Source of the DNA: Botryllus schlosseri
Lineage: Eukaryota
Direction: 5' to 3'
NCBI GenBank assembly: GCA_051294905.1
Contig: CM119372.1
Location: forward strand, 11,782,001 to 11,846,000
DNA: 64,000 bases
The notes under the pieces are model-generated. The model did not search any database and was not told the origin of the DNA. It saw only the letters and a program-made list of their open reading frames with translations. Each line of letters starts with the position of its first letter. The first letter of the stretch is position 1. Below, piece by piece: positions 32,901-64,000 of this stretch. The position numbers and the translations under genes were made by a program.

Positions 32901-35900
32901 CATCGAATCTAATTCGCTGTAACTGCGGAATCGATGTCAAAAACAATAGCCTAATATTATTTTCAGTATAGCGGACATTATTATCAAGTTACTCGTGGGC
33001 AAGAATATGAATGTATTTACTCTCGCATATTAGAAACTAATGACTAATTGCCTCTGTCACAATTCGATAGAAACTTAATATCGCGTATTTCGAATTGAAC
33101 TAGTGGTTGGTAACAATTGTAACTCAGTAAGTAACAAAATATCGTAACTGCGGGTGAATTTCTTCAAGTGGAAAGTCTAACTTTGATTTGTAATTATCTT
33201 AATATTATTACCGCTTGCCGAAACTCGCCAAGTGGGACTTGAACTCGCACAAAGCAACCTTCTTAGAATACCTATAAAAAGACCTACAACGAACAAGTCA
33301 AGGGGAAAGGAAGTGCGGCCACGGACACGGTCGAGACAAGACGCGTCAAAAAATTGACCACCGAGCAGAGTCTGGTGCGTAGACCAGCAGAACCGTAAAC
33401 ATTGGCACGTCCACAATTAAATGCGCAGCGATTTAGAAATGTGTATCCAATTGTTGATAGCTGAATTACCACAAAGACTTTGAGAGCGCGAAATCGAAGG
33501 GATACACGGCAGTAACCGAGACCCCGGAACTGCAACGAATCAGGAAGCAGCAAACTCACCACGATGTAAGTCCAGTCGCCGTAATCGTACACGCGAAATG
33601 TACTCTACTAATGCCTACGAAAGGTTTCCCTTACCAAACGGCTCGCTTCTCTCTTCGGTCTCCGCTTATCATTGATCGGGAAATCATTTCCTTCATCCTT
33701 CTTAATCACGCAAAGATACAGCTCACACATCCATACCTGTCGTGCTATCACGATGAATCATTCGTAACAATCGACGCGCATGGCTGATCTTTCTAACTGT
33801 TGATCTGTTACGCTTTTCGCGGACTCTTCTCACTTCTGTCGATCCCCTCCGCTATCCTTTTCGATGCAAATGGTGCCTGCCTTGCCTCCTGGCGAATTGC
33901 AAACCCAGCTTGACTACACGAGGGAGATGAAGAGAATTCAAGACCAATACAATCTGGACGGATGCTTGTCCACCTTGCCAGAAATCGATATCGCTAAAAA
34001 GGTGTCGGAGCAATCGAGCAAGGTAAGAAGCAAATCGAAGGCAACTACTATCTTGTATCCCTCATATCTTATCAAAGCAATTCTGACATCATCACGCCCG
34101 TTGATAGTTTACGAAAATGAGAATATCATGGTTGAAATCATACTAAATCATGCGGAAATTCCTGGATGTTCAAAATAGATATTGCAATGAATTGGATTTC
34201 TAAACTAAATGGACATAATGTTGATACTAGCTACGTTATATAATTCGAATTATCATCGTTATGTGAATTATCATTATCAGTATCCGTGTAGATATCTTGC
34301 CTTGGTAATTCAGTGTCGATTGGCGTATGCTTCATTGTTGGCGACAATTTCTTTTGAATTGTCTCCAGAAAGGGTACCGAGAAGACTATGAACGAAACAA
34401 ACACGCTTCGGCATTCGGTAAAGTTTACACGGATGTGTTAGCGTACAAAGTTGCCCGAGCCGCCAATGATGCCATAAGTGAAGTATGTGGCGGGTTCGTT
34501 GAGCGGTAATGTGTCATTTAAAACTGGTTATGCTCTAATAATGCAGAGTAAATACAAAAAGGATTGGGAAGCAGACAAAAACATCATATATTATCCCGTC
34601 AACTTGACGCCGATGTACGAAAACGCGGTAAATTCTCAACAAACCGTCAGTAACGTAAGTCGGCCTACTCCAAATTGCTGATCGCGAGATCTTCCGAAAA
34701 CTATAACGTAGCTACCGCTTCAAAAACGCAGAACTTGTATCGAAGACGAAACGATGAGGACATGGCTTTGAATCACTATAATCCCGTCGATACTAAAGAA
34801 TACGAAAACGTCAAGCAACAGCAAAGCAACATCAGTGACGTATGGTGATAGCATTGGACAAACTAGAATACTGTAAAATGTAACAAATATATTACATCCC
34901 GTTCCAGACGCGTTATAAAGCTCAGTACATGCAAGACAAAAGCAAAGGGTACACTTTTATCCAGCCACCGCACCAGGCGTACATATCTCAAACCTTGAAT
35001 GCAATTCTGTCGAACGTAAGTAAAAATGTGACGTATATCGTAGGCTCATTTGAGGCTACAGGCTAGCCGTCGTTCTGAATGAAGATTGAAGATGCTTGGA
35101 TTGGTAGGCCTACCTACATTTTGAAAGCGAAAATATGTGGTACAATTGACTGTCTAGTTGACTTTCGACTAACTTAAAAAACACGCATCCACATAACATA
35201 TAAAACCGAGAGTTTGAATACGTTTCAAGTGGTGTTCGATATTCCACCAGAATATTATTACAAAGCTGTTTTGCAAACAGCACCATTCGTTTATGTCATC
35301 CGGAAGGAAACGCAGCACCTTTTCATATTTATACACCTAATTACACTAGGATCTAGTAAAAAAGGATGTTTTAACAGAAACTGTACACCGAACGAGCGAG
35401 AAAGTTATGGGAACATTATCACCTCGTCGTACCGATACCGCAAATAGCAGTAGCCATTGAGGTGATTACTTTAATTATGTGACATATAACACTTTCAATG
35501 TTATCATCACTAATATCATTTCTTCTCAATCAGACGGCCAAGGCGACTTCAGACAAAGCGTACAAGGCTCACTTTATGGCTGAGATTATGTCCAAGTCGG
35601 GAAGGGCTGATATTAAATGTTATCCCGAGCTGCTCTTGGCTAGAAAAGTCGCAGGTCTCGTTAGTGAGGTAGGCTGCCGTATACTAGGCATATAATAGGA
35701 GCTATGTTATCTTTTGCAGCCACATCAACTAGTAGCAATTTAGTTATGTCCAAAGTATCCCGAAGTATAATTTCATCATGTCTGAACAGAATGCTTACAA
35801 AAAAGACGGTGGGAGTTACAATCTTCCCTACAGCATACCCATTGATGCTCCAGAGTTTCTCAGAGCAAAGAAAGCAGCTGAAGGAAGCAACGTGAGTTAT

Positions 35901-36422
35901 CGATGGTCTGTTGTGGCTAGGCCATACATTGTACTGACTATTCTCTTGTTGGTTGTCTCTACTTGTGCTACTTAACAAAGTTGTTTTGTTTTTCAAATGT
36001 TAGCCTACTGTATTTACTCTTGTGTGTTATCATTTTACACTGTATACTGTCTTAGATTCGTGGATGTAGTTTTGTATCTTGAAAATTATCTATGGCTACT
36101 AGAATTGTCGCTAACTACCTGTTCAAAGATACTAGAGCAAATCTCCAACCTCCTTTTCAAATCGCATAAAGTTTATTGGATTTTATTGGGAATGCCCGAT
36201 GAATAGCCTACTCCAGTTTCTGCTTTAGTAAGATTTTTCAGGCCTGGATTGAATGCTCATTGCTCATATGTGGCATTTCACTTTTGCCGTATAGGCCTGT
36301 ATTACCTGTCACTGATACACCAGTGTTGTTGATCCGAGTGCATATGGTTCTATTCCTGTGTCCAGTGTAATTGTGGCTGTGAATTCTTCGTGTGAAGGTC
36401 ATAGATGCCGAAGCCATCTCTC

Positions 36423-36460
<38 letters not shown>

Positions 36461-39400
36461 TGGTCCATGTAATCAACAATAGCATAGCAAAATACAATTT
36501 GCCCCCGAATAAAATTACTCGAGTAGAATATATTATAAGGCTTCCTGGTTTTCGCTGCATTGTATTGCAATTGCATTAGAAGAAATGAAAGCTGATATGT
36601 ATGATTAATAATGTGATAAATGTAATATGATTAACATCATTATCCTGCAATTTGGTATGGCTTTGCTAAGAGAATTTCTGACAGATGTAGCATACATATG
36701 AGACAGACAAATCTAGACATACAGTCGTGGTTGAATAATAGTCAAATGTTCTTATAATTTATTCAGATAATTTACAAGAAGCAGAAAAATGAAACCCTTT
36801 CAGACTATCGTGGTTATCAAACAATGGAGACTAAACATCATCCTGTGTTGAAGCAGAAGGAAAAGGCTGAAGAGCACAGTGACGTAAGAATCCGGTGTTT
36901 CGTGTTCAGAAATCTATTAAAAATGCTGTCTCACAGATCAAGTATAAAGAAGACTGGGAGTATGATAAAAGCTGTGTGTACTATCCGGTTCACATCACGC
37001 CTGGATACGAATCACTGCTAAAAGCAAACGAAGCCAAAAGTGATGTATGTACCATATGTTTATCTACTATATGTCATTCCTCCTGTTCTCAATAAGGGAC
37101 ACTCATTCTTTGTGTATACGGTACATTATTTACTAATTTGAATATAAAGATATCCTGATATGATATCAAAATGGCAAACTTTAACGATGCTAGCAACGAA
37201 TTTGAATACTAGTGAGGTCCGTAATTTTTTGTGGATTACCTCACGCTCAAACCTAGGCTACATCAATAGCCAAGTCTACTTTTATCTGCACTAATCCAGT
37301 TAGTGATATAATGATGTATTGATTATAACTTCTCATCTCCCAGTTCTGTTTGAATGTTTCGAGATAAAGTCCATCAAATAAATATTGCTCCATTGGTTTT
37401 TAGCAAATCGTTATAAACTCAGAAAGTAAATCATGATTGGTATAGAAAAAGTGTTGTATATGTTAAATTTCTCATACATCAAATTGCCAGCAGACAACAT
37501 GTAAATCAAATTTCAATGAGAAATTCTAATTAGGCGGATGTGTTGAGTCAAACGCAATATTCCCATTTGTTGTTTTATTGATGCTCAGGTGTAACTGTGC
37601 TTACTAAATATTTCATGACAACACTTCTACATGCAGGTACCGTATAAACACCCTCTTCATCTGCCTTTATGTGGCGATCAAGAATAGGTAATTGACTGTC
37701 ACTTATTTCAATTTAGGTCGCATACAAGGAAGAATTCAACAAAACCAAAGCCCAAAACAGATATGATGTTACATCAACTCCAGTATATAAAACACACAAG
37801 GAAATTGAAGAAGCTACCGCGAATGTTAGTTGATATATATAATATGCTGCCGATTTCATGTCTTATGTGGCACTTGTACACCCAGCCAAAGTACAAGCAA
37901 GAGTACGAAAAGAGCAAGGCAAACGTTACCCAGATTGCCGACACTCCGGAGCTTAAATTATTCAAGGATTTGCAGCCGATTCAAAGCAAAACTAAGTATG
38001 GCGCCAAATCCAAGAATATGCAAAAAGATGTCAACATTGGTCCAGGTATTCACATATGCATATAATACATTCGTATACACTTATAAATCAAATACTATGT
38101 AATCATTTCATCAATTGTAGCGCCCAGGTCAGCAATCTTCAATAATAAAGATTTAGGACACGTGGTGTTGAAACTCGTAGGGATCAGACAAATTTCACAA
38201 AAATTTGCTCAATATCATCGAAGCTGGTCAAAGTAATTATCAAAGTAGCAATGGTACAATATTTCAGAAGTTCAAGTAAAAGTGCTTTTTAGGCAAGTTA
38301 GAACTACGTTAAGTAAGGTCGAAAAACAAACTGATCGCAAAATAATCAGAATGGTTGAAAATCTTCTTCACGCATTAGTAAAGCACTTTCAGCCATGTGG
38401 AAATATTAAGAAACGGTATAATTCAACCTGATAAAAAACATTACAAATGACTTTAGATCTGCAAGAGATCGCGCACGCGGTGTCGTCCCAGAAAATATTG
38501 TCCAAGGAGGATTACAAGAAGCATTACAAAGACCATGTGCTCGGTCAGGCTCCACAAGATCCGGCCATGGCTTATCCCGAATATCGGCTCATGAGAGATG
38601 TCTCTGAAAAAATTAGGCCGGTGAGACACGCGGGTCTGATGACAATTAACTCAGCATCTAAACACGGTCATACATTGCAGGCAAACTACAGGAAAGAAGC
38701 AGATCAACAGAAGCAGCGCGTTCAAATGCCGCCTGATCATCCGGATTTCCTCCGTGCCAAGGAAGCCGCTAAGAACCTGAGCGATGTAAATAGACGTATT
38801 TAGTCTATGTGAAGACGCTGTTATCATGCATAATTGACAGGTGGAGTATCAGAAACAGAAGCATGAAACCATTCAAAAACATCGAGGATATCAAAGTCTT
38901 GATCCGCAAGATCACCCGGTGGTCAAACAGAGTCAAGAGGCCATGAAACTTCAATCGGAAGTAAATGCTTAATAAATCATTCTCTTTATCAGAGCACTCA
39001 ATCTGATTAATATATCATCTCAACGTGTGTTTTGCTTTTATGATTCCAGTCAATCACCCCCAGTACTATAATTTCGATTAGCGGGAATGTATTTGATCAC
39101 AAAGATTTTCCTAAACTACTGCCTACGTCTTGTGTCAATTTCACACGCCCGCAAATCAGATAAAACATGAAGTTTTCGCCATACTATCATACAACAATGT
39201 GTTTCATTCCGCTGATAGTATTTGAGCTTGGACACCTGTGATCCCTGTGTGTTCAAAATCCGTACTATAACTACCATGACATCTGAGGAGGGAACTGCAT
39301 TAAGCAAAGCATGCATCATTTCATATCTCTATTCAGTCATGTTTGCGCATTATGCCCAATCATCGCTTGTGTGGTTCATCCAGTTTCTGAAGTCAGAATG

Positions 39401-42400
39401 TGTCTCATCCTTTCATGTAGGGTACCTTATACACAGGGAACCATAAAATATCACCACCAACTTTTGGTAATTGGATTATTTATACATTAGAAAGCCTATC
39501 ACGAGGATTGGGAATACGACAAGAGTGTAATATATTACCCTGTCCACATCACACCTGGCTATGAATCTCAGGCGCAAGTCCGACAAATACAAAGTCAGGT
39601 AAATGTTAGATATGAACTGTGACAAACACAAATTGCTGTCAGTAAAACCCAGTCATATATTTTCCAAGGCCAAATACAAAGAAGGATTCGAGAAGGAAAA
39701 GGATAAAAACACTTACGACGTCACACAGACTCAGCAATACCAAGATACATCGCAGCTTTCAAAATTTATGTCAGATGTGAGTGTCGGCGTTGTTGCCCGT
39801 TTCTTGAGTAACAAGTCGTTTGCATATTTTCGTGAGCACAGGCGAAATACAAGGAGCAGTATGAAAAGAACAAGCATGTGACGTCTCAACTAGAGGAAAC
39901 TCCAGAAATGAAACTTTCCAAGGAACTACGTCCAATTCAAAGCAAGAAAATGTATGCTGAGAAATCAAAAGAAATGCAGAAGACTGTGACAGTGGGTCCA
40001 GGTGAGACATTATTTATTTATTATTATTTCTCAAGCACCACTCTGATGAATATAAGGATTAGTTGCCTGATTCAATTGCTTTATATCTGTAGGAATATTG
40101 GAAGGAATGATTAACTTCTGTGTCAAATCAAAATGACTATGGCTTACTGAAATGGTATCTGCGCACAGAAAATCCCCGTTGCGCACAACACAAAATCGAA
40201 GTGATGACCTTTTTGTTAATCGTTACGCACTGTTGTCCAAGGGACCGCGCAGTGAGTTGCTGACTGCATGCAGACTCGCGAAAAATTAGAGGGAACATTG
40301 TCTGCAAAGTAGTAGTGGGATTATTGTTTTTATGTTGAGTTTTATGCTCACATGTGACTCCTTGTGATACTGTCTGTTCATCAGCATGAATAAGACAATT
40401 GGAAATCACTAGAATAATCACCGGAATATGTTCGGTCCACTCACATAAGTACCAAATTTTCATTCCGCAGACAATCAAGAAATTGCTAACGCCGTTTCAA
40501 AGCAAAAGCTCATATCAGAGGGCGAATACAAGGCAGATTTTAAGAAGAATGTTCTCGGAAAAGCACCACACAATGTTGGTCAGGCATATCCCCAATATGA
40601 GCATCTTCGAAACGTCAGCAAAATGACGAGTCAGGTAACAAACTATTTGGAATCGAGAATGAACTTTATAGTCAACTTTTTCGAACACCGGTGTACTTTA
40701 CAGAAAGAATATACGAAGGAGGCGGACATTTCCAAGCAGCACCACAATCTCCCTGCAGACTACCCACCTCTCGTACAGGCACGGGAGAATGCCAGGAATG
40801 TCAGCGATGTAAGTTTTGCTGACAAAGATTCCACAGGTCTCAAGATCGCTATCCGATTACCTTCCATTCAAGGTGGAATATCAAAAACAGAAAGCCGAAA
40901 CGGTGAAAGGATATCGCGGATTCCAAACTATGGAAGCAAAACACCATCCAGCAGTCCAGCTAGCTGCGAAATCATCCGAATTATACTCTCAGGTGAGTAG
41001 ACCATGTTTAACTGTTGTGTATAAATTGTTCCTACCTGAAATATGACTTTTCCATATGATGTGACTTATTGGAGCATGTTACTTGAATAGGCAGTAAATA
41101 GATTATGAAGATTCGTCTTTCTTCTTTATATGGGCTTAGACAACTTGAAAATTAAGTAACTATGATTCATCTTGAAAATTTACTCTTTACCACACTACCG
41201 TCAGAACGCATATAAAGAAGACTGGGAAGCTGAAAAAGATCTGATGTATTATCCCGTTCATATCACGCCGGGATACGAATCTCAGGCTGAAGCGTCAAAG
41301 CTCCAGAGCGACGTAAGTGAGCCATTTGAAACGGATTGCAGCAAATATATTCACAGCTATCGTGCAATACCAGAAAAAGTACAAAGAAGGTTACGACGAA
41401 GCGAAAGAGAAGAACCGATATTTTGTTACCGAAACGGAACAGTATAAAGCCATGAAAGACACGGGGCTTGCTACTTCCGAGGTATATTCTGGTTTCTCTC
41501 TGTCTACTGATCTCCGTAATCGTGTAAAAAAAAAGTTAAAATGCAGCAAGTTGTTCCAGGCTATTGGCTAGAATTGTACTGGCATACATTACTTCTAATT
41601 ACATTAAGCTTCTCGTTCTATATTCGACGTTCAATTACTTTTGGCCCATCATGGAAATCCATTTAGCCGCTTTGAGTGTTATATCTGCTGCATCAGCTAA
41701 TATATCCCCGTTCAGACTAGCAACAACTAATCAGAAGATGTTAGTTCGACATTGTCCATGTAATAGGATAGCGATTACCGCACATTTATCGGTGCCTATG
41801 AATAAGTGATCCAATAGTAACAATCCTTATTCTCTGATATCACCCATTACGAGAGAAGATACCATACCGTATTATACAACTTCCACTTTTGCAGAGAAAT
41901 TACAAAAAAGAATACGAGAACACGAAATCCAATGTCGTCTCAATGAAAGAAACAAATGAAATGATTCGCGCAAAGGAACTGCGCCCGGTGCAAATGCAAA
42001 AACTCTACACGGATGACTCAAAAAGAATGCTTCAAAACGTGAACATAAGCTCAGGTACTGATTTCTTTTCAGACTTTTCAGACAAAGGGCAATAGGATTT
42101 AAATGCAGGGAATCCCTTTTTATTTTTAACAAATTCATACGTATTATCATGCATAAATCATTTGTACTATTTATTCAAAATACAGAACTTTTTCATTTCA
42201 GGCATACTCATCTAAATAAGCTCCCAAACTTACGTTGGATTGCCACAAGCTATTGAGTTTGAAAGCTTTTTTGCTGCAATATTCACTGGTTTGAAACATT
42301 ACCAGATTTACAAACTGTTATGGCTCCAGATATAATTTAGAAGCATGTCAGGCCTCGCAAGCCAATCTCTGGATTGTGGATTTCGGAAACCTAAGCGTGC

Positions 42401-45400
42401 AGACTGCAGATGTAACATAGGAGTTGATGCACTTATTCACAATTTATTACATGGACCAGCGAAAATTGATTGGGGACCTGACACTGACACCGCTGTATTA
42501 GAATACTTAGTTATGTAGTGGTTTACTACTCTTTACGACTGTAGATTAAAATTATCTGATGACTTGTGTATAATGAAATTTGAAAAATTCCGAAATATCT
42601 CATCTTCAGATCTTCAAAGCATCTCGCATGCAGTTGCGACTCAGAAAATGTCGTCAAAGGATGCTTACGCTGCCGAATACAAACAGACAATGGTCGGGAA
42701 GAGTCCGCACAATGTCGCCGTGGCGTACCCCGAATACGAACACCTACAGAAGGTAGCGAAAGACAGCAGCACTACCGAATATACGAAAGACGCGAAGAAG
42801 CAGAGCCACCATCACAATCTGCCGGTGGACTATCCCGAATTCGTTCGGGCAAAGGAGAACGCTAAAAACGCCAGCGATGTGAGGAATCTGAATTTTGAAA
42901 TGTATGTTTCAAAGCGTTGTTTGATTTTTAATCAAACTTCAACTGTAGATGGAGTACAAGAAAGATTTGCGGAAAGTTACCGATTCGTATCGCGGATATC
43001 AGACGATGGACAGTGCAGAACACCCTGTCGTTAAACAGGCCGTGAAAGCAACCGAGTTATCTTCAGAGGTTGGTATTTCTAATACTGGAAAAGCAGACTG
43101 TGATCATCACCACCACCAGCACACAGGATGTCATTTTTTTTATGTATTACCTAATTTCTCTAACGGAGCACAACTCGTGTTATTAGTAGCGGCATCGGAA
43201 ATTTCCTGATTCTATGTCTTTACGGGATCCCTTATCGCTTTTTCTGTCTATAATTTTTCATTATGGCTATCTAAAACTTGATTTCAGGAGTCAAGTTCGC
43301 CACAAAGCTCTCGCCCGTGCCTTATATAGTCTTATATAGTCAGCCACACATAGTCTGCTTACCGCACTACCCAAATACATGATTCGATCGTACATGTCAT
43401 ATTCAATAATAGAAAATAAAATTGCGGTCTGACCCCATTGATGTTGATACATTGGTTAACAAGCTGAATTTTATTATTTATCATGATTTATACACATAGG
43501 ATTAATTGGTTCACCTGACAAAGTTGATCGATTTCTAATAATTTCCTCAACTTACATTACAGAAAGCGTACAAGGAAGACTGGGAATATGACAAGAGCAT
43601 GATTTGCTACCCAGTGCACATCACGCCAGGCTATGAAGCAATATCTGATATCAAAAATATTCAAAGCGATGTAAGTTATAAATGTTGAAATGCGTGACAT
43701 TTCGTAATATGAATTCAATTCAAGGCGATGTATAAGCAAAATTATGAAAATGAGAAGGAAAAGAACGCCTATCTCGTTACCGACACTGAACAATACAAGA
43801 CTATGAAGGAAACTGACCAAGTCACCTCAAAGGTAATCAGTATTTCAAGACTGTCTATCACGGAATTGTACTGTCACGGAGAATAGCTTATTTTCAACTT
43901 GTGACGTCTGAATGGCTATGTTCTAACTAAAGTGTCTTGGCACATTTACAAGTGTTGCTTCTTTCACCAGAGAAAATATAACGAGGAACACGAGAAAAAC
44001 AAAGCAAAGATAATATCAATGCAAGAAACTCCAGAAATGAAAATGGCCAAAGACCTCAATCCATTTCAGAGTAAAAAACTTTACTCGGAGAACTCCAAGG
44101 AAGCAATGAGGAATGTCAATGTTGGAATGGGTATAAGAATTCACTTGACTTTCCATTCGAAATAAATGAAAGACCCAATCCATCGCAGATATACAAGAGA
44201 TCGCTCACGCTGTTTCCACACAAAAGATGGCTTCAAAGGACCAGTACATCGATGACTATAAAAGGAATGTGGTAGGGAAAGCTCCGCATGATGTCAATAA
44301 TGCATATCCGGAATACGAGATCTCCAAGAAAGCTTCTATTCTTGCTAGCAAGGTAGATTTTTATCGCTACGCACCCAAAAGGTGAAATTAATTGGGATTT
44401 TTCAAAAAGAACGTATACAAAAAAGAAGCCAAGAAAGCCATGCATCAACACAACTTACCGCTCGACTATCCGGAGTTTGTGCAAGCAAAAGAAAATGCGA
44501 AAAACACTAGTCAGGTGTGAATATCGCTTCAATTTGTCTGTGAATCTGTACGAACATTTCTCACGGTTACAGATTGAGTATACCAAACAGCGGGCCGAGG
44601 CGATTAAATCCTATCGCGGGTTCCAGACGATGGATAGCACCGAACATCCCGTGGTGAAGCAAGGCTTGAAAGCGGCTGAACTCATGTCGGATGTATGTAT
44701 TTGGCAATTAAATTTGAGGTTATCATATTGGCTTACGCAAATAATCTCGGGTTCAATTACAGAAAGCTTATCGCGAAGACTGGGAATACGATAAAGCCAT
44801 GATCTACTATCCAGTTCATATTACTCCGGGATACGAATCGCAGGCAGAAATTGGCAAAGTGCAGAGTGATGTAAGCTTGCGTGAGTTCTTTGTGCTTAGC
44901 TATTTTTACATAATATCCATGTTCAGGTGAAATACAAAGAAGATTTCGAGAAATCGAAGGAGAAGAATGCGTACGTGGTTACTGACACGGAAGCCTACAA
45001 ACAAATGAAAGACGTCGAAACTGCATCGTCAACCGTGACTAATATTATAAATTATTGTGAATGACAGCTTTTCACCAACTCCTGTCTTATTTCTGTAGGT
45101 AAAGTATCAAGAAGAGTATCTGAAAAACAAGGGGAAAATGCTAAGCATCGAAACCACTCCCGAAATGCAGCTATCCCAAGAGTTACGGCCGATTCAAAGT
45201 AAAAAATGCTACACAGAGCAATCGAAATCGCAACAGAAATCCGTGCACATTGGGCAGGGTAATAATCGTCTCATCATGTGTCGATATGACCATATGTAAG
45301 TCTGTATATATCTACAGATCTCCAGGAGATTGCGCATGCTGTGAGCACTCAAAAACAGTCTTCCGACGGCGTGTACAAAAATGAGTTCAGGAAAATGATC

Positions 45401-54400: not shown

Positions 54401-57400
54401 TAGACCGAGTACAAAAAAGAGCATGAAGCCAACAAAGGCAAGGGTTTCACCCAAGTGAAAATTACACCGGAAATGGTGATTTCACAGTCGGTTCAGCCAT
54501 TTTTGAGCGAAAAATGGTACGCGGACGCTGCTAAACGAACGATGCAAGAATACAACTTGGACTCATGTAATATCTCAACAATGTGTTGCAGGAACACAAT
54601 TTTTGATTCATTTTCTACCTCTTCAAGCAGCTGTCCAAAGCATAGCACATGCGCTCCACACTCAGAAATCTGCGTCCGACGCACCGTACCTGAGTGATTT
54701 CAAGAAGAACATGGTTGGAAAATCTCGACAGGATCCAGCCAACTCCTATCCCGAATACCACCATGCAAAGAAAGTTTCGAAATTGATGAGCAAAGTATTT
54801 TGGCCTGCCTTTATCAAATTTTACGTTGGTGTGATGAAGCATTTTTGGTTTGCAGAAAGAGTACCTGAAAGACGCCGACAAAATAATGCACACACACAAC
54901 ATCCCTTTGGATTATCCTGTATTTGTCAATGCAAGACAAGTGGCGAAGAACGCCAGCGATGTGAGATATTGCATAAGTGTAGTGGTGCAACATTATGCAT
55001 ATTAAACTGATTGTGTTTGACATATTTGCAGGCTGAGTACAAGAAGCAGTTGAAGGATGTTATCAATTCGTACAGAGGTTTTCAAACCATGGACAGTACG
55101 GAGCATCCCATTGTGGTGCAAGGGATTAAAGCTGCAGATCTAATTTCTGAGGTAAAAATATTGACTTTAAAATTCACAATACGTAGATCTTTCAGCGGGA
55201 AGTCTCAGTATGAGCTTGTACCCACAAAATATTACCTTATAGTGTTGATTATGAAATATGTTGCCTTACAAGTAGACCTATGTCATTATTTTATGTCGCA
55301 TTAACCAATCAGCGACACATTTGCCTGTATTAATACTCACCGATCCCAGCTATGTCCATTGTATCTAGTTATGTGATGACATTTTATATCTAAATCCTTG
55401 CAAAAGTATTGTAAAGAAATATTGCCCATCTATTGGTTATAAACCGTCAACACGGGAATATTACCAATTTATATTGGTAACAGTTTGAACCTTAATGATA
55501 ACAATTTTTCCAAACAGAGTGATGAATTTTTTGAATTACCGCATTTTTCATAACAATTTTATGTAGTGGCGCAATTTCTCTCGGCAATACCAACTTTTTC
55601 ACAATGATTGCCTTTAAAACAGAAACAGAATAATGATAACAATTAGTCATCGTCAAGGAATTTGAAATTTGAAATAGAGTAGCGAGGTGAAATTCATGCA
55701 GAGATCTAAAGCGAAATTTCGCCTTCGTTTCGATTGCTGAAGCTATAATCCACAAATAAATTGTTTTCTACAAATCAGAAAAAGTACAAAGAAGACTACT
55801 TGGCGGACCGCGACCTCATATATTACCCCGTGCATATCACTCCCGGATACGAAACGGCTGTCAACGCCAGCAAGTTTGGCAGCGAAGTATATGAATAACA
55901 TCTAATCGCTTGCAGCCCTTAAAACGAGTAACACATCGAATGCGTTCCAGGTGGGATACAAGCGCAAAGGGCAAATGGAACAAGACAAGAACAATTACAT
56001 TTACACAGAGACGGAACGTTACAAAACGGATAAGGTTTTGGACAACCTGAAAGAAGTGAGATCATGGCTACGGGTCACATCTCTCCTTTTGCTTAACCTA
56101 ATCGCGTCTTTGTCTTTAGCTCAACTACAAAGAACCAGCTGACAAGTTCACGGCGATGAAGGTCACTCCTGAAATGGAGCTGTCCAAACTGGTACAAGGC
56201 ATCCTCAGCGACACCCATTACACGAAGCAAGCCAGGAAAATGTTTGACAAATACGACCTCAACATAGACGAACAGAAAATAGCCCACGCCCTCTCTGTCA
56301 GCGAGGTGAGTTCAAATTCCCTGATTATCCCGATCCTTATTTCCTCGCGTCAAGCGGTACCTTCCTGATGCAGAAAACTTCTCCGAATACCTATCTGAGA
56401 GATTTCAAGAAAAACATTGTCGGCAAGACTGTCACTGACACGTCGATTGCTTATCCGGAATACGAACATTTCAAGGACGTCTCGAAGATGATAAGCAAGG
56501 TATGATGCTGATTGCTACCAACGTCACAAACATTATTTATAAATGCATTTTTCCTTAGAACGAATATGTAAAAGACGCCGAGAAAATACTGCATCACCAT
56601 AATCTACCTTTGGATTACCCAGAGTTTGTCCGCGCCAAGGAGAGTGCTAAGAACTCAAGCGATGTGAGTTGAGAAATGCCGCTTGACGTAAATCTACATT
56701 GAGCTACCCGTTGTTGTTTTCTCATCAGATACATTATCAAAGGCAGCGGCAACAAGTCATCGATGCGTACCGGGGTTTTCAGACAATGGACAGCACGGAT
56801 CATCCTGTCGTGCAACAGGGAATAAAAGCAGCAGATCTCATGTCTGATGTAATGAAAATTATTGAGTGCATATTCGACGCGTCACGGCCTTTGTTTGGCT
56901 GATTTGTGTGTAATTCTATTACCTTACTTCAATATCAATCAATTCCTTGCAAATATTAGAAGACATCTATAATATGGGGTAGCTGAACAGGCCCTGAGTC
57001 ATGTTCGAATGGTCCCGAATTGCAGAGCAATATATTGTTGTATGTCACTGTCATAGCCGACAAGACAGCGTAATGGTAGAACGTCGGGCTTCTTGATTGG
57101 TAGGTTGTGGATTCAATCCCTGGCAGGGTCAAACCAAAGACCTGATCAGTAAGACTGGTATCTGTGACTTCCCCGCTTGGCGCTGAGCATATCTGGGATA
57201 GTATGGACGGGTGGTGCAAGACCAAGAAAACCTTGCAAGGGTACATTCGCATTTCCTTGTCCAGCGGCACATACACTACTGCACTCATGGTGCATATGCA
57301 CATATCATGTGTGTGTATCGTGAGTCGCTGCAAAAATATCAAGGATAAAAATATATAACATCTTATACCTGTGTGTTGTTTCGAAAGTTTGTCAGTAACA

Positions 57401-60400
57401 ACTTACTTCTACTTGTTCTTCTGCTTCTACTTACTTTTGAAATTCTCAACTAGATTTTGTCTACTTACGATACTCACTCAGGTCGTTATGGTTTTAGACT
57501 ACTTCTACTTCCACTTGAGTATCAACAATGACTACTTTGATCACCTCTGTCTGCATCCAATGTGTTGATGATGTGTCCTGTACGCGAATAATTATCAGAT
57601 TTCAAGTTATGCTTCACATTTCCAGGCTAAATACAAAGAAGACTACATGATCGACAGAAACATCATTTATTACCCGGTGCATTTAACTCCTGGATACGAA
57701 TCGGCTACAAACGTCAGCAAATTTCAGAGCGACGTAAGGAGTGCTTTCGGTGCGATCTGAGCGTCGTAACTATCTCGATTTCATCATACACAGGCACTGT
57801 ATAAAAGTCAGCACAACAAAACTAAAGCTGACAACAAATTTAATCCAGTTGAAACCGATCTGTACCAGACTGCAAAGGAAACGCAACGTACTGTAAATGA
57901 GGTATCACCTCATTCTTCTCACTGTCCAAGATATCATGTAGCCACCTATGATCTTTCCCACAGAAAAATTACAAAGACGACGCTCGCCAAAAGCTGTCCA
58001 CCGACTTCACGCCAATAGATGACACGCAAGAGATACTGATGTCAAAGAAATTGAAGCCTTTGCTGAGTCACAAAATATACGCCCAGCAGGCCAAGCAGAT
58101 GTTGAACAAATACAATCTGGACGCTGGAATCCCGGTATGTCCAGATGTACACAGTAGCACATACTGCTGATATTCAAGGTTCTAAGTCCTAAACACTAAA
58201 TAAAACAGCTCTATTTCAGAAACGATTTGCCGTGCTAGTACTCAAATACTTTTTTAGTCTAGTAAAGGCAATGAACATTTTGTCATTTGTCATTGAGTCA
58301 AGGATAATAATTATATTGTTCACGTGCAGGAAATAGCACAGGCACTCTTTGCGACACAACTCCTGTCAAAGAAACATTATCAAGAGCAATACCAGAAAGA
58401 GCAAGTGGGAAGTGCTCCCCACGATCTCACCATGTCCTACCCGGAATGTGACCATGCGAAGCACGTGTCGGAATTAGTCAGCAAGGTACGCGACGCTGAT
58501 TATCTATAGATTACGAGCGCATCAGCATACTTGCTTTTGTCCGACAGAAAAATTATGCTAAAGCAGGAGAAGAGTTGCAGCATAGCTTCAAAATGCCGGC
58601 GGACATGCCGGAAATAGCGAGAGCAAAGGAAACTACGGAAAACACCAGCGATGTATTTAAAATTTAACGCTACCAAATCTCATAATACTAACGGTCAGTT
58701 TCTATGTCGCTAGGTCAAATACAAAAGGCAGCTGCACGAAGTCAACGAAAAGTTCCGCGGATTCCAAACCATGGACCCGAAAGACCACCCTTCGATACAG
58801 CAAAGTCAAAGGGCTGCCGGTCATTCCGATGTAAGATCGCTAAATTAGATATAAATATGTTTGATCGCTCTTCATTCGACAGCCACTGTAGCCCAGACGT
58901 GACCCAAGCCCGGGTAAATGCGCAGTAGGGCTCTTCAAATATGACTTTTTTTCTCAAATCGTACTGGCTACTTTATAGAATTGTCAGGTTACCTAATTTA
59001 AGCCTACACACAAAATTTAGTTCAATTCCAGCCAGTAACCGCTTTGCTACAGGAGAAGAAAGTTTCTATTATCTAAAAATAAATAATAAAAATTTTGAAA
59101 ATTTTCTGTTCACCCCATGAAAGTGTTAGGCTGTCTATAGAAACGATGCTCACCAAATTTGGTTCAATTCCAACCAGTGGAAGCGGAGTTATTGCCGTCG
59201 AAAAATTGTGATTTGTATAAAATAGTATTTACGGTGACCGATTCTTTGTTTATTTATTATAGTTGTGCTAACCGTAAATACTATTTTATTGAAATCCAAA
59301 TTTTTCGACGGCAGTAACTCCGCTTTCGCGGGTTGGAATTGAACCAAATTTGGTGAGCATCGTTTCTATAGACAGCCTAACACTTTCATGGGGTGAACAG
59401 AAAATATTCAAATTTTTTATTAGTTATTTTTATATAATAAATAGAAACTTTCTTCTCCTGTAGCAACGCGGTTACTGGCTGGAATTGAACCAAATTTTGT
59501 GTGTAGGCTTAAATTAGGTAACCTAACAATTTTATCAAGTAGCCAGTATGATTTGAGAAAAAAAGTCATTTTTGAAGAGCCCTAATGCGCAGGGTTGCAG
59601 CAGCAGGAAGGCAGGGTTATAATGACTCGAGTCGCGATTTTACGGAATATGACTCGACTCGACTTGAGTAAATCTGTGTATTGACTGGACTTGTACTCGA
59701 GTCATTGCGCATGACTCGGACCAAGTCATATGACTCGAGACTGTGACGGCCAAGACCGACATTTCGTTTGTAATTTCAAAGAGAAGTAAAGTTACCACAC
59801 TATTGGTATTTCGTCTATTAGTATTGGTACTTGAAAATGCGACCAGGAACTGTTCAAAGTGATGAAAAATAGTATATTATGAATGCGAAGCATTCAATAT
59901 CACCAAGCAGAGTTGTGAAAAGTGGGTTTCACAAGGCTTCAACTCGAAACTGAACAGTCAACACAATGACTTGGAATCGGACTCGAGTCATAGCACTATG
60001 ACTCGGACTCGGACTTGTCTCGGTGGTGAATTGAAAATGACTCGACTTCACTCTAATGAAAATGATATATTGGAGATAGACTTGTGACTCGGAAGCTTGT
60101 GACTTGGTTACAACCCTGTAGTAAGGACAACTGACGTAAAACTTTAGCCAAATCATTGAGCACCAGAGGTAGTTAATGAAGAAGTACTTATACTTTTTCG
60201 AAGTACTCAGCTAGGTTGTACTATTTTTTAGGCAAATCTCTGCCTACAATAGTTACTTTTTTACTTGTATATCGCTACTTCAACTTGCGCTTGATTGGAA
60301 AATTATGTCGTTTCTTTTACATCTGTTTGTGTGTGGTTGTGATAAAGGATTCTTCCATTTCAAATTCGGGTATATTTTTCCAGTTGAAATACAAGGAGGA

Positions 60401-63400
60401 TTACGAGATGGACAAGAGTTACATCTACTTCCCGGTACATTTGACTCCTGGGTATGAATCGGTGCAGGGTCAGAAGGCGCAGAGCGAGGTGAGTACGTTT
60501 TTGCAAATCTGGTCAACAAATTGCGTTACCGTTTCGTTCTCTCAAAGTCTGTGTACAAGCAAAAACACAACAGCGAAAAAGCGGCAAATCGTTTCAACGT
60601 CACCGACACTGAGCAGTATCAGGCCAACGTGGTGCTGAAGAACTTGATCGATGATGTAAGATTTAGAATCGTGAGTTATTGTTTTACGTCGGTGCTCACG
60701 AGAGGCAATCTTGTTTCAGCGAATTTACAAAAAAGACTTGGAAACAATGACAACAGAATTCTCTTCGGTACCCGATTCCGTGCAACAACTTCACCTGAAC
60801 GCGGTTCAAACTCTAACGAGCCAGGTGAGCAGTATATCCCATTCTAAAGATGATTAAGTTTTGATAACAATACCGTGTTAACACATATCGTCGATTACAG
60901 AAACGCTATTCCGACGACGCAAAAAAGACCCTTGATAAGTACAACATCGACGCCAGCGAATTGCAGATTTCCCACGCGTTAGCCACTGCGCCGTTATGCT
61001 CCTCTGTCCGTTACAAAAACGACTTCAAAAAAGACGTTGTCGGCAAGCCGAGAAGCAAGCAGGACTTGGAAACCTATCCCGAGCACTTAAATGCCGGCAA
61101 GGTTTCAAAACTGACCAGCAAGGTGATCTGATTTTACCTATAAAGAGGTGGTCAGGAATGACGTACTCGACTAGGTTTTGTGTACTTGTGGTACTTACCC
61201 AAGTGATTATGATTTTAGACAACATCTACTTATACTTTACAGTTTTCAGGCAAAACTAAGCCTAGAATGTATACTTTTCCTTATTTGAAAATCACCGCTG
61301 CAACTTGTACTAGAGTAGAAATTTATATTTGAGTACCAACTATGACTATTTTGAGCTACTTGGCAAAAGGTGGAATACGCAAAAGACGGAGAAGCAGCGC
61401 GTCACCAATTCACGTTGCCGGCCGACATGCCAGAAATCGAGCTTGCCAAAACCGCCGCTAAAAACGCTAGCGATGTGAGACTGTCATATTATTTAAAGTC
61501 AAACAGCACCACTGCATTTGCTTCATCGTGCATTTCAGCTTATTTACAAGAAGCAAAGGGCGGAAGTTATCGGTTCGTACCGCGGCTTTCAAACGATGGA
61601 CAGCAAAGACCATCCTGTTGTGCAGCAGGGACTCAGAGCGGCGGACTTGATCTCGGATGTGACCGCTTGCCGTTAAACGTTAAATTTCATCATCTGCAAG
61701 TACTTTTTTTTCAGATAAAATACAAAGAAGACTACATGATCGACAGAAATCTTATTTATTACCCTGTACACATAACGCCCGGGTATGAATCTGCGATAAA
61801 GGCCAGCCAGTTCAACAGCGATGTAAGTCCATTACGGCGATGATTTTTTATTTTTAACACATTTACCACCAATGATGAATAAATGATATACCTTTGTGCT
61901 TTAGGCTTATTTTCAACTTGTAAATGTTGTGGACTACGCTTCTGGTCAATGAGTGTTGTTCGCATTATCGTATGGTACGGTTTTGAAAGTTACTACAAGC
62001 GTCTGTGATATTAAATTATTTTAAATCCATGCGAAGATTTTGAAGTTATTGAATCTGAATTGAACATAATATTAATACCATAAACTCTTACAGTTCAACT
62101 ACCAAAAATCCGCTAAGAAGAATCTCGGAGATGTGCATTACAATGTGACGTTGACCGAAGCGTACAAAGACCTGAAAGACAAGGAAAAACTATCTGACGT
62201 ATGACGATATTTCACATCCAGCACAACGAGATTAAAATTCACACTCCGTTTTTGCAGCATGCATACAAAGAACATCCGTCGAAGGTTTTGTTCACGCAAA
62301 TCGCAGACGCTCCGGACGTCAAACACGCGAAGGCGGTGCAAGCGTTGACGAGTTACTCGTTCTACAAAAATGCAGCGAAGAAAATGATGGATAAGTACAA
62401 CTTGACCATCGACGACCAGCACACAACGCATGCATTGCTTGCCAGTAAGGTAAGTGACCGTGAATACTTCAATTTTTCTGAAATATCACTTTTTATAAGT
62501 TTCTTTATTTGACGGAGGAAATTTTCGAATTGACAGAGTGCATTTAAAAAAAATTCTTGAGCCTTGCATTATTGGAGTTCTGTTAGAATACAAAAATAAA
62601 TAAAAATCATCGGTATCAGTTTATTAATATTTTCATCGTATCATAACATCACAAGACTGTAACACAATGAAAATATAGGGTCAAAGTTGTTTCAATACAG
62701 TGTTCTAGATTTGTGAGTGCAAAACAACTTTCCACTTTGTATCTTTCAATACCTAATTAAACAACCCGGCGGTTTATAAAATGAAATAATTTTTCGAAGC
62801 TCTTCTCCGGTGTCAACTACAAGAGCGATTATGACAAGAACGTCAAAGGAACAATGCTGGCAAAAACAATGGAAAGCTATCCAGAGCATCAGAACGCCAT
62901 GAAAGCTTCGAAGAATCTAAGTCAGGTAAGTTGCTGGAATCATGAAGATAAGATTATATTTATGTTGAATGCTCTTGAATATTTGCATGACAACTAACGG
63001 AATAACATCTCAGGTGGAATACCAGAAAATGGCCGACGAGTTGAAACACTTCTACTCTCTTCCCGTTGACATGCCGTCAATCACTCACGCCAGGCAGGTC
63101 GCTGAAATGCAAAGCAATGTAAGTATGGTGGTAAGCTGTAAAAATCCTGTCGTAATGAACCTTGTGTTTAGATAAACTATGTGAAATCGCGCAAAGAAGT
63201 CATTGACGGGTTTCGAGGATTTCAGACCATGGACAGCAAAACACATCCCGTCGTGCAGCGGGGAATTAAAGCGGCTGATTTGATTTCCGAGGTTGGTAAT
63301 ATTGTGGATGTCGCCAGCAAGTTCTTGGTGCTTAGTGCTCGAGAGTGTCTTCTTCACTTTTCTGTTGTACAAGACTTTTAATAGATTTGCATTTCTTCTA

Positions 63401-64000
63401 TATGGGGCTAGTGATGTAGCTGCTGTAGGAATGAATATGGTTTCAAAGTAACATTTTTTACCTCATCCCATGGTAACCTTGAACATTTTTGGAGTTCCAC
63501 ATAGATAAAATGTTTCTAGGAACAATTGTATGGCTCATTGTTTCAAGTATCCTTTCAACTTTAGCACTTAGCTCTCACTAATATTTCATCATGCGCAGGA
63601 TATTTCACACCAAACATAGAAACTGATGTCATTTTGTATTCTCAGCGCAAATACAAGGAGGAATATTTGGCCGATCGAAATCTAATCTACTATCCAGTCC
63701 ATCTCACTCCGGGATACGAGGCTTCCACGAGTGCTAGCAAATTTGCCAGTGATGTAAGAAAATATGTGCGGCACACTCATACATGTAATATTAAGCTCTG
63801 TAATACAGGCTGATTACAAGAAATCGTACAGAAGCGAACTGTCAAACTATCACAACTTTCCGGCAGAGCAGACTCCGACGTACAAATCCGCTAAAGAACA
63901 CGATGAATTAACTAATGAAGTCGGTATTTGTATTTCTGCAAAGTCAAGCAAGCGTCAGTAATGTCAATGCCATTCTTGTTTAGAAACGATACAGGCAGAA
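26961..64000 (+). CDS. NEB: Nebulin-family giant actin-binding muscle protein, multi-exon, about 3,800-3,950 aa encoded in the window, 3' end beyond the window
   Basis: About 90 GT-AG exons, mostly 105-120 nt and phase 0, splice into 35-40 aa modules with SxxxY joints and TPE/YPE cores, organised as seven-module super-repeats. Exons are secure from 32408; the start exon (MSNKDE, 26961-26978) is tentative. Orthology to vertebrate NEB versus NRAP cannot be proven here. Confidence 0.88.
28431..29085. mobile_element. hAT MITE (family of 20905-21728)
   Basis: CAGAGGTGGCCAAC / GTTGGCCGCCCCTG; degenerate TSD ATGTAAAT / GTATAAAT. Confidence 0.85.
29957..30427 (+). CDS. Putative N-terminal exon of the nebulin gene (basic patch followed by an acidic Tyr/Ser/Thr-rich segment)
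   Basis: Stop-free frame AQIQRRDTEVTPGSNGGKRKKKVLVKKKKGQNSPTEIKPTSPPGTSETYYEYPIGEYSVEG...; phase-0 donors at GAG|GTTCG (~30334) or CAG|GTAATG (30427); the acceptor is weak. Confidence 0.45.
32408..34482 (+). CDS. Nebulin N-terminal simple repeats; exons 32408-32524, 33267-33374, 33461-33565, 33909-34022, 34369-34482
   Basis: GFEG...MTPQMMHALKMSQTQSQ | NTYKKTYNEQVKGKGSAATDTVETRRVKKLTTEQSL | LNYHKDFESAKSKGYTAVTETPELQRIRKQQTHHD | LDYTREMK...LPEIDIAKKVSEQSSK | KGYREDYERNK...AISE; all phase 0 with GT-AG boundaries. Confidence 0.85.
34547..36883 (+). repeat. Nebulin super-repeat 1 (divergent)
   Basis: YYPVNLTPMYE module through YRGYQTMETKHHP module; 7 modules. Confidence 0.85.
36428..36456. repeat. 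(CT)n microsatellite
   Basis: About 14 CT units in a nebulin intron. Confidence 0.9.
36937..38960 (+). repeat. Nebulin super-repeat 2
   Basis: EDWEYDKSCVYYPVHITPGYE ... HRGYQSLDPQDHP. Confidence 0.9.
39491..40992 (+). repeat. Nebulin super-repeat 3
   Basis: Six exons, seven modules. Confidence 0.9.
41205..43068 (+). repeat. Nebulin super-repeat 4 (five exons; one intron missing)
   Basis: Fused exon 42610-42878. Confidence 0.9.
43563..44692 (+). repeat. Nebulin super-repeat 5
   Basis: Six exons, seven modules. Confidence 0.9.
44763..45820 (+). repeat. Nebulin super-repeat 6 (254 aa)
   Basis: Exons 44763-44870, 44927-45034, 45099-45258, 45318-45478, 45538-45642, 45701-45820 total 762 nt. 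Confidence 0.92.
45881..47606 (+). repeat. Nebulin super-repeat 7
   Basis: Six exons, seven modules. Confidence 0.9.
48016..48520. mobile_element. Fold-back MITE with TTAA TSD (Kolobok-like AG...CT termini)
   Basis: TTAA|AGGGGCACTGCACTCTAAAA ... TTTTAGAGTGCAGTACCCCT|TTAA; about 200-bp inverted arms. Confidence 0.85.
49340..49986. mobile_element. Fold-back MITE (left tip lost); same family as 58926-59584
   Basis: About 300-bp inverted arms around a short spacer; close match to 58926-59584. Confidence 0.88.
50495..53330 (+). repeat. Nebulin super-repeat 9
   Basis: Six exons, seven modules. Confidence 0.9.
50708..51791. mobile_element. hAT-type MITE with TCCGG subterminal motifs; probable small nested element at about 51048-51258
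   Basis: TAGGGTTGCCA / TGGTAACCCTA; perfect TSD CCATAGTT. Confidence 0.88.
53395..55151 (+). repeat. Nebulin super-repeat 10
   Basis: Six exons, seven modules. Confidence 0.9.
53986..54383. mobile_element. hAT-type MITE with AAGTTGC subterminal repeats
   Basis: TAAGGCAAGTTTT / AAAACTTGCCCTA; perfect TSD CTAATTAT. Confidence 0.88.
55779..56848 (+). repeat. Nebulin super-repeat 11
   Basis: EDYLADRDLIYYPVHITPGYE ... YRGFQTMDSTDHP; module-4 intron at a different position. Confidence 0.9.
57056..57356 (+). mobile_element. tRNA-derived SINE
   Basis: A-box-like AGCGTAATGGTAG and B-box-like GGATTCAATCCC, followed by a non-tRNA body and an A-rich end. Confidence 0.6.
57626..58830 (+). repeat. Nebulin super-repeat 12
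   Basis: YYPVHLTPGYE ... FRGFQTMDPKDHP. Confidence 0.9.
58926..59584. mobile_element. Complete fold-back hAT-type MITE
   Basis: TAGGGCTCTTCAAA / TTTGAAGAGCCCTA; about 310-bp inverted arms; perfect TSD ATGCGCAG. Confidence 0.92.
59612..60118. mobile_element. hAT-type MITE with GACTCG subterminal arrays
   Basis: CAGGGTTATAA / TTACAACCCTG; degenerate TSD CAGGAAGG / TAGTAAGG. Confidence 0.75.
60384..61658 (+). repeat. Nebulin super-repeat 13
   Basis: YFPVHLTPGYE ... YRGFQTMDSKDHP; modules 4 and 5 lie in one exon, 60901-61122. Confidence 0.9.
61715..63291 (+). repeat. Nebulin super-repeat 14
   Basis: YYPVHITPGYE ... FRGFQTMDSKTHP. Confidence 0.9.
63646..64000 (+). repeat. Nebulin super-repeat 15 (partial, runs off the window)
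   Basis: RKYKEEYLADRNLIYYPVHLTPGYE exon, the next module exon, and the start of a third exon. Confidence 0.85.

Follow-up and report, generated by a model that had tools for sequence, protein, structure and literature searches.

The nebulin super-repeat is the textbook protein ruler, matched to the thin filament's seven-actin regulatory period, and its relative NRAP carries a LIM domain at the N-terminus but lacks SH3. In the available portions of published accounts, each nebulin module is placed on one actin subunit and the unit spans the 38.5-nm regulatory period (bioRxiv 10.1101/2021.10.06.463400, PMC7109182). In mouse nebulin WLKGIGW closes simple repeat 3, and the part of that study available proposes it as a hydrophobic contact for the troponin-T (TnT) linker (bioRxiv 10.1101/2021.10.06.463400), while the accessible text of two reviews gives it as a tropomyosin or a troponin/tropomyosin site (PMC7754682, PMC7109182); as far as these sources extend, the partner of the once-per-period motif is still debated between tropomyosin (older work) and the TnT linker (in situ structure). 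Here we describe a 64,000-nucleotide stretch of the Botryllus schlosseri genome (contig CM119372.1, positions 11,782,001 to 11,846,000 of the forward strand, hereafter the window), which, judged by its sequence, holds most of a tunicate nebulin gene. We put at roughly three in four the probability that the window holds nearly the whole super-repeat part of a sea-squirt nebulin, with a seven-module unit inherited from the ancestor of tunicates and vertebrates and a putative docking site contributed by modules 7 and 1 (M7-M1).

The window had been predicted from its letters to encode a giant nebulin of at least 14 tandem units of about 254 residues (aa), starting at position 34547. Reconstruction bears this out, with 14 complete seven-module units (U1-U14) of 250-256 aa on the + strand between 34547 and 63291, the former being the exact first base of the first U1 exon, followed by a 15th unit that begins at 63646 and continues past the window end (Table 1). 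One clean unit served as seed for six exon-type hidden Markov models (HMMs), which gave 83 non-overlapping exon matches, all on the + strand, with AG and GT exactly at the predicted ends in 65 of the 83; the remaining exon ends were fixed by hand and eye. U1-U14 comprise 84 exons, each flanked by AG and GT, that together make 10,680 nt or 3,560 codons free of stops. Alignment places seven conserved tyrosine-anchored modules (M1-M7) in the same order in every unit, 98 modules in the 14 units, so the predicted order stands; the literal pattern S...Y does not, occurring 5-8 times per unit because the serine is sometimes replaced. The usual exon plan is M1; M2; M3 with half of M4 (ending in phase 1); the rest of M4 with M5; M6; and M7, the other junctions being of phase 0 and falling between SD and xxYK of the nebulin motif. 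In U2-U10 the intron within M4 is the only one of phase 1. One intron is lost in U4, and some introns lie at other positions in U1 (seven exons) and in U11-U14. Pairwise identity between units ranges from 31 to 65% (median 44%), which makes them old copies, neither collapsed nor recent. Like NEB-type nebulin, the array is a seven-module super-repeat repeated many times.

Intron loss or repositioning between equivalent units is seen at 42610-42878, 56120-56499, 57964-58485, 60720-61122 and 62258-62925. These differences (U4 against the rest; U11-U14 against U2-U10) date blocks within the array and might serve to put its duplications in order.

The identity of the gene is supported by domain profiles and by its relatives. 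Window exons score 27.3 and 32.9 bits against Pfam Nebulin (PF00880; cut-off 20.1), the repeats standing in tandem, and with a 90-aa exon as query the best named relatives are Ciona intestinalis H2XZS0 (E 6.7e-54) and H2XXK9 (E 2.1e-53), both of which bear the signature motifs of the window. A phmmer search with a Ciona fragment against 1.84 billion representative proteins returned 22 at E <= 1e-30, the named matches being nebulin from lamprey, teleost and pig, NRAP from turtle and lamprey, and C3ZH63 from amphioxus. Within 120 kb of downstream DNA the gene goes on along the same strand, with about three degenerate units, single repeats extending to ~23.7 kb beyond the window end, a linker and an SH3 exon. 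Searched by tblastn with C-terminal sequences of NEB from pig and teleost, and of relatives, this DNA yields the nebulin-type linker motif and the SH3 exon ~25-28 kb past the window, the SH3 exon at ~28 kb being 67-70% identical to the SH3 domains of the vertebrate family, so that the C-terminal linker and SH3 expected of a nebulin are both present. Identity as NRAP was considered and rejected, since this SH3 exon is present and no LIM domain was found in the upstream searches given below. The true first exon of the gene was not found in those searches either.

Partial support for the exon model comes from X1, a public run whose library type is not recorded. X1 contigs join up to six predicted exons in order, none of those listed spanning a whole unit, and in one contig the segments 52437-52595 and 54404-54566 are spaced by 440 nt, the sum of the four intervening predicted exons plus 2 nt. 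Contigs from X14 run through introns, as DNA would. Among 151 proteins there was none of the same species to which exons could be mapped, the best local identity being 89% over 36 aa, in fragments.

Four signature motifs, assigned to modules 1, 5, 6 and 7, had been predicted once per unit. In a six-frame scan loosened forms of these, YYPV[HN][ILV]TP, [AS][YF]P[EQ][YC], [LMI]P.D.P.[FLI] and [YH][RK]G[FY]Q[TS][ML][DE], gave 13, 11, 15 and 12 matches, respectively; all four classes are confined to the + strand between 34.5 and 64 kb, with zero on the - strand, and one [LMI]P.D.P.[FLI] match (51548) is intronic and probably due to chance. The loosened motifs occur once per unit in 13-14 of the 14 units. 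The strings as originally written are found in fewer: YYPVH[IL]TPGYE in 11 units, YRGFQTMDS..HP in seven, HNLP.DYPEF..AK..A.NASD in four and GK.P.D...AYPEY in three. The reported absence of WLKGIGW is upheld, WLKG[IVL]G having no match in the six frames and W.[KRQ]G.[GC] occurring in none of the 14 units; the array therefore does not show the WLKGIGW-type motif that NEB-type nebulin has once per super-repeat. As amphioxus nebulin also does without this motif, we treat it as a vertebrate feature and not as one that defines the family.

The window's motifs recur in other proteins of the tunicate type. In six of these (P0005, P0006, P0008, P0010, P0011 and P0013) the window's unit is matched contiguously and over its full length at spacings of 247-256 aa; their motifs are variants of those in the window, and W.KG.G is absent. 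When the window's 13 regular units were compared with 16 units from these six proteins, 36 position-specific columns were conserved in both sets, of which M7 holds 10 and M1 six, the most of any module. Such a concentration fits a once-per-period contact site, as had been proposed for the M7/M1 motif pair; the idea of one contiguous site has to be given up, since the two motifs lie about one module, or one actin subunit, apart. Tunicate module 7 has 40 aa against 31 in vertebrates, and the extra residues are the near-invariant R-G-F-Q-T-M-D stretch.

How the tunicate unit relates to that of vertebrates was addressed by aligning whole units. In NEB of pig, teleost and lamprey, as in NRAP, W.[KRQ]G.[GC] comes back at intervals of 241-250 aa, and from 54 full-length vertebrate NEB/NRAP units gathered, 42 were kept after removal of near-duplicates. 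Profile-profile alignment (hhalign) of the 13 regular window units to a doubled vertebrate profile gives a best register that sets tunicate M1 on the W.KG.G module (score 207.5, E 4.6e-29), with the next registers at 172.5 and 171.1; for 29 tunicate-type units the best register scores 205.3 against 180.2 and 171.8. All seven centred diagonal cells of a 7x7 module matrix are positive, and the in-order module pairing ranks 4th of 5,040 permutations, or 12th of 5,040 in a second matrix from the 29 units. When each window unit was globally aligned to each vertebrate unit in all seven rotations, register 0 came out best for 241 of the 546 pairs, against 29, 69, 65, 87, 25 and 30 for the remaining six registers. 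In the best register D-K-x-x-I-Y-Y-P faces the vertebrate W-L-K-G-I-G-W-x-P, and V-H-I-T-P-G-Y-E follows.

This colinear alignment in a single register favours a contact motif that was replaced or diverged within a shared super-repeat. From the sequences compared we conclude that the whole unit is homologous to, and in register with, that of vertebrates; individual modules are too short and too alike for confident one-by-one pairing. The original prediction had allowed for an independent origin of the sevenfold register, to be judged by whether the modules cluster with vertebrate NEB/NRAP positions. They do so as a whole unit, colinear in one preferred register with M1 on the WLKGIGW module, which speaks against independent origin, although the one-to-one pairing of modules is not clean. 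As an observation on the vertebrate side, the teleost nebulin P0004 has N-terminal units (starting at 668, 912, 1156, 1400 and 1644) in which the first tryptophan of W.KG.G is missing and D-Y-x-x-x-[VY]-K-G-x-[GP]-W stands instead; U11-U14 likewise have E-D-Y at the start of module 1.

In the model we favour, the sea-squirt gene would be the single pre-duplication counterpart of vertebrate NEB, NRAP and NEBL. Each module of 35-40 aa would lie on one actin subunit, with SDxxYK split at exon junctions as in vertebrates, and seven modules (~255 aa) would make one unit matching the period of seven actins, one tropomyosin and one troponin, a unit that tunicates and vertebrates presumably both have from their common ancestor and that was not twice invented. 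D-K-x-x-I-Y-Y-P and V-H-I-T-P-G-Y-E would occupy the place of vertebrate W-L-K-G-I-G-W-x-P, and this M1 stretch, together with the near-invariant 9-residue insertion around R-G-F-Q-T-M-D in the preceding module, would form the tunicate once-per-period docking site for the regulatory complex, for which the proposed partner in vertebrates is the TnT linker. Actin binding, the role as a ruler and location on the thin filament we infer by analogy with described nebulins, notably the in situ structure of mouse nebulin, and the binding partner of the M7-M1 site we infer from the position and conservation of its motifs.

The unit may be shared with vertebrates and its M7-M1 motifs nevertheless not be a site for troponin, serving instead tunicate-specific actin packing (e.g. 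through a longer loop), or binding tropomyosin, a KLHL40-like chaperone or a partner on the myosin side. We regard this as possible, if distinctly the less probable case. That WLKGIGW contacts the TnT linker is, in the available text, itself proposed from superimposed densities (bioRxiv 10.1101/2021.10.06.463400), the reviews, so far as accessible, still name tropomyosin or troponin/tropomyosin (PMC7754682, PMC7109182), and in the consensus of tunicate M1 the proposed second TnT contact, ExxK, is, by our reading of the alignments, not spaced from the end of the module as it is in vertebrates; yet every seven modules contain the motifs exactly once, one of the motifs occupies the site homologous to WLKGIGW, and in distant tunicate-type sequences no other position-specific features are as well conserved.

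More tentatively, WLKGIGW might be a vertebrate invention, and an older once-per-period regulatory contact might be made in tunicates by a different, bipartite site, with R-G-F-Q-T-M-D...H-P inserted where one module ends, I-Y-Y-P-V-H-I-T-P-G-Y-E closing the module that follows, and a P-x-H-I-T-P-x-Y core surviving in two amphioxus units. Were this doubtful reading true, nebulin and the TnT linker would have co-evolved, and tunicates would amount to a natural swap experiment for the tuning of thin-filament activation.

The amphioxus protein in question, Branchiostoma floridae C3ZH63, resembles the Botryllus array in having units (five, of 244-251 aa) without W.KG.G, and differs in a large non-repeat insert mid-protein. 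Two of its five units have P-Q-H-I-T-P-V-Y, in the module that best matches tunicate M1 (37.9), and this string is absent from the six vertebrate proteins examined. Residues 172-185 and 414-427 of C3ZH63 (P0015) read K-G-K-G-N-F-P-Q-H-I-T-P-V-Y, containing the tunicate-type P-x-H-I-T-P-x-Y core. K-G-K-G-x-F-P was considered as a bridge to L-K-G-I-G-W-x-P and set aside: turtle NRAP, too, has it three times among its single repeats, and it is probably a generic module feature. Nor could amphioxus serve as an outgroup for polarising the motif, since no one register of its five units is consistent with both tunicates and vertebrates. Amphioxus nebulin has reportedly been treated by Hanashima et al. 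2009 (Gene 443:76), and Bjorklund et al. 2010 (J Mol Biol 402:38) reportedly argued for independent super-repeat expansions in amphioxus and vertebrates, which would speak for separate origins of the unit.

If the tunicate unit had been built separately, from a single-module array under the same seven-actin period, its likeness to the vertebrate unit would be generic with convergence added. We consider this unlikely. WLKGIGW is found in 0 of 14 units and in no tunicate-type protein examined, the units are of ~255 against 243-245 aa, the longest tunicate module (40 aa) is aligned to the vertebrates' shortest (31 aa), single modules often score higher off the diagonal, and the amphioxus registers are not transitive, all of which speaks for separate origins; set against this, one register leads by 25-35 hhalign units, the in-order pairing ranks 4th-12th of 5,040, register 0 takes 241 of 546 pairwise tests where 78 are expected by chance, and tunicates are the sister group of vertebrates, which makes one origin more parsimonious. 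On the sequences, it appears likelier that the super-repeat is ancestral and shared and that its contact motif has diverged.

Several results nonetheless weigh against the inherited, in-register unit or the gene model that carries it. In the raw hhalign matrix the top score falls on the diagonal for only two of the seven modules (M2 and M5), and after centring for six of seven, but for three of seven with the 29 units. For NRAP units, register +4 does at least as well as register 0. The modules being all mutually homologous, wrong registers still score 160-180, and constraints shared through position on the thin filament could add convergent signal. Matched to tunicates, amphioxus has its best register at rank 306 of 5,040, and matched to vertebrates at rank 47 of 5,040; the two are incompatible, and we make no claim on the ancestral state. 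No LIM domain was found upstream by Pfam on 148 of 201 open reading frames (ORFs) of at least 55 aa, by tblastn with NRAP N-termini or by a Cys/His regular expression, searches by which small LIM exons could be missed. Finally, in the bulk RNA runs X22 and X24, of each of which ~6% was read, there were almost no exon reads, most falling on intronic high-copy repeats. That the locus is a decaying, non-functional duplicate or a repeat assembly artefact is nevertheless very improbable, having no point in its favour (the low X22/X24 exon coverage merely fails to argue against it) and facing 3,560 open codons in 84 exons with canonical splice sites, units only 31-65% identical, position-specific conservation common to Ciona and six other proteins, and exon-joined contigs in X1.

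Table 1. Nebulin features of the window, with exon coordinates counted from its first nucleotide.
Feature	Span	Exons or pieces	Strand	Support
Upstream nebulin-like single modules (5' part of same gene)	32348..34506		+	Pfam Nebulin, weak, E 0.0033 (ORF 32348-32545)
Upstream module-like ORF pieces		33270-33362, 33464-33547, 33879-34055, 34369-34413	+	Module likeness
U1, 254 aa, most divergent, 7 exons	34547..36883	34547-34654, 34732-34839, 34908-35015, 35378-35461, 35534-35668, 35790-35891, 36767-36883	+	AG..GT, phase 0, no stop
U2, 255 aa, 6 exons	36937..38960	36937-37044, 37717-37824, 37886-38045, 38457-38620, 38681-38785, 38841-38960	+	HMM and splice sites
U3, 255 aa	39491..40992	39491-39598, 39669-39776, 39842-40001, 40471-40634, 40704-40808, 40873-40992	+	HMM and splice sites
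U4, 255 aa, 5 exons	41205..43068	41205-41312, 41374-41481, 41895-42054, 42610-42878 (modules 4b+5+6 together), 42949-43068	+	Pfam Nebulin E 3.2e-06 on 42609-42878
U5, 255 aa	43563..44692	43563-43670, 43725-43832, 43971-44130, 44189-44352, 44410-44514, 44573-44692	+	HMM and splice sites
U6, 254 aa, reference for module boundaries	44763..45820	44763-44870, 44927-45034, 45099-45258, 45318-45478, 45538-45642, 45701-45820	+	X1 contig joins 45099-45255 to 45317-45478
U7, 256 aa	45881..47606	45881-45988, 46052-46162, 46643-46802, 46871-47034, 47324-47428, 47487-47606	+	HMM and splice sites
U8, 255 aa	47666..50425	47666-47773, 47829-47936, 48866-49025, 49103-49266, 50143-50247, 50306-50425	+	HMM and splice sites
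U9, 254 aa	50495..53330	50495-50602, 52049-52153, 52219-52381, 52437-52597, 52663-52767, 53211-53330	+	HMM and splice sites
U10, 255 aa	53395..55151	53395-53502, 53565-53669, 54404-54566, 54631-54794, 54856-54960, 55032-55151	+	HMM and splice sites
U11, 250 aa, shifted introns	55779..56848	55779-55886, 55951-56055, 56120-56305, 56374-56499, 56559-56663, 56729-56848	+	HMM and splice sites, resolved by hand
U12, 255 aa, shifted introns	57626..58830	57626-57733, 57794-57901, 57964-58134, 58330-58485, 58548-58652, 58714-58830	+	HMM and splice sites, resolved by hand
U13, 255 aa, separate exon for module 3, one joint exon for modules 4+5	60384..61658	60384-60488, 60548-60655, 60720-60824, 60901-61122, 61370-61474, 61539-61658	+	X1 contig covers 60898-61119
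U14, 252 aa	61715..63291	61715-61822, 62094-62198, 62258-62449, 62800-62925, 63014-63118, 63172-63291	+	HMM and splice sites, resolved by hand
Start of 15th unit	63646..64000	63646-63753 (module 1)	+	AG/GT

Of the upstream pieces, 33879-34055 matches the N-terminus of the Ciona protein P0001. Further upstream, + strand ORFs between 10818 and 12910 show weak sulfotransferase matches (PF00685; E 0.0018 for 10818-11192 and E 0.00025 for 12695-12910) and probably belong to a separate, intron-containing gene. Within the array, introns at ~47.5-48.8k, 49.5-52.1k, 53.5-54.8k and 58.8-60.8k have a contig depth thousands-fold above that of adjacent exons, with many reads fitting two places, and long mirror-image ORF pairs lie on both strands at 48.05-48.55k, 49.3-50.0k and 58.9-59.6k; these intronic stretches look like high-copy inverted repeats similar to miniature inverted-repeat transposable elements (MITEs) or short interspersed nuclear elements (SINEs). 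A short (GA)n/(CT)n-type repeat at 36350-36480, read as E-R-E-R and S-L-S-L in ORFs, lies in the long intron between modules 6 and 7 of U1. On another contig a second nebulin-repeat locus (L001, G000:C6:13858607-13861687; + strand ORF 1417-1632) has two canonical repeats in one exon (PF00880, 32.6 bits) and is probably the LASP-type gene of this animal.

The gene itself is the expected orthologue, and Ciona fragments with these motifs are already public in UniProt. Nishikawa et al. 2019 (Gene 716:144036) reportedly describe the Ciona nebulin gene and its transcripts. Both the register shared with vertebrates and the replacement of the motif may be unpublished, and earlier papers on Ciona or amphioxus nebulin could cover them; the words Ciona and amphioxus do not occur in the available portions of a 53-species vertebrate survey and a 2020 review (PMC7754682, PMC7109182). 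If tunicates, the nearest invertebrate kin of vertebrates, retain the seven-module unit in register and have another invariant motif in the place of WLKGIGW, the period of the ruler would be separable from its contact motif, and the alternative motif indicates which residues to mutate or swap. The exon model also provides a near-complete tunicate nebulin where the public protein sets searched have short or unnamed pieces only.

Compared with known systems, the Botryllus gene shares with vertebrate NEB (lamprey XP_032807711.1, teleost XP_048862253.1 and pig A0A8D1G5Z3) its nebulin repeats with a conserved tyrosine and SDxxYK at exon junctions, its colinear seven-module super-repeats in one register with mostly one module per exon, and its overall plan, in which a long tandem array leads into single repeats, a linker bearing P-G-S-I-F-D and an SH3 domain at the C-terminal end. 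It differs in lacking W.KG.G, in the place of which stands I-Y-Y-P-V-H-I-T-P-G-Y-E, in a unit of ~255 against 243-245 aa, and in the number of units, 14 good and about three degenerate ones against the 22-28 super-repeats given for vertebrate nebulin in the available part of one study (bioRxiv 10.1101/2021.10.06.463400). NRAP (turtle XP_042711188.1, lamprey XP_032805784.1) likewise has nebulin repeats, its super-repeats being marked by W.KG.G with a period of 241-243 aa. Ciona nebulin has the same module types and motifs and 40-58% identity to the query exon, in public models that are short (896 and 586 aa) and whose modules, by HMM coordinates, are out of order relative to the units of the window.

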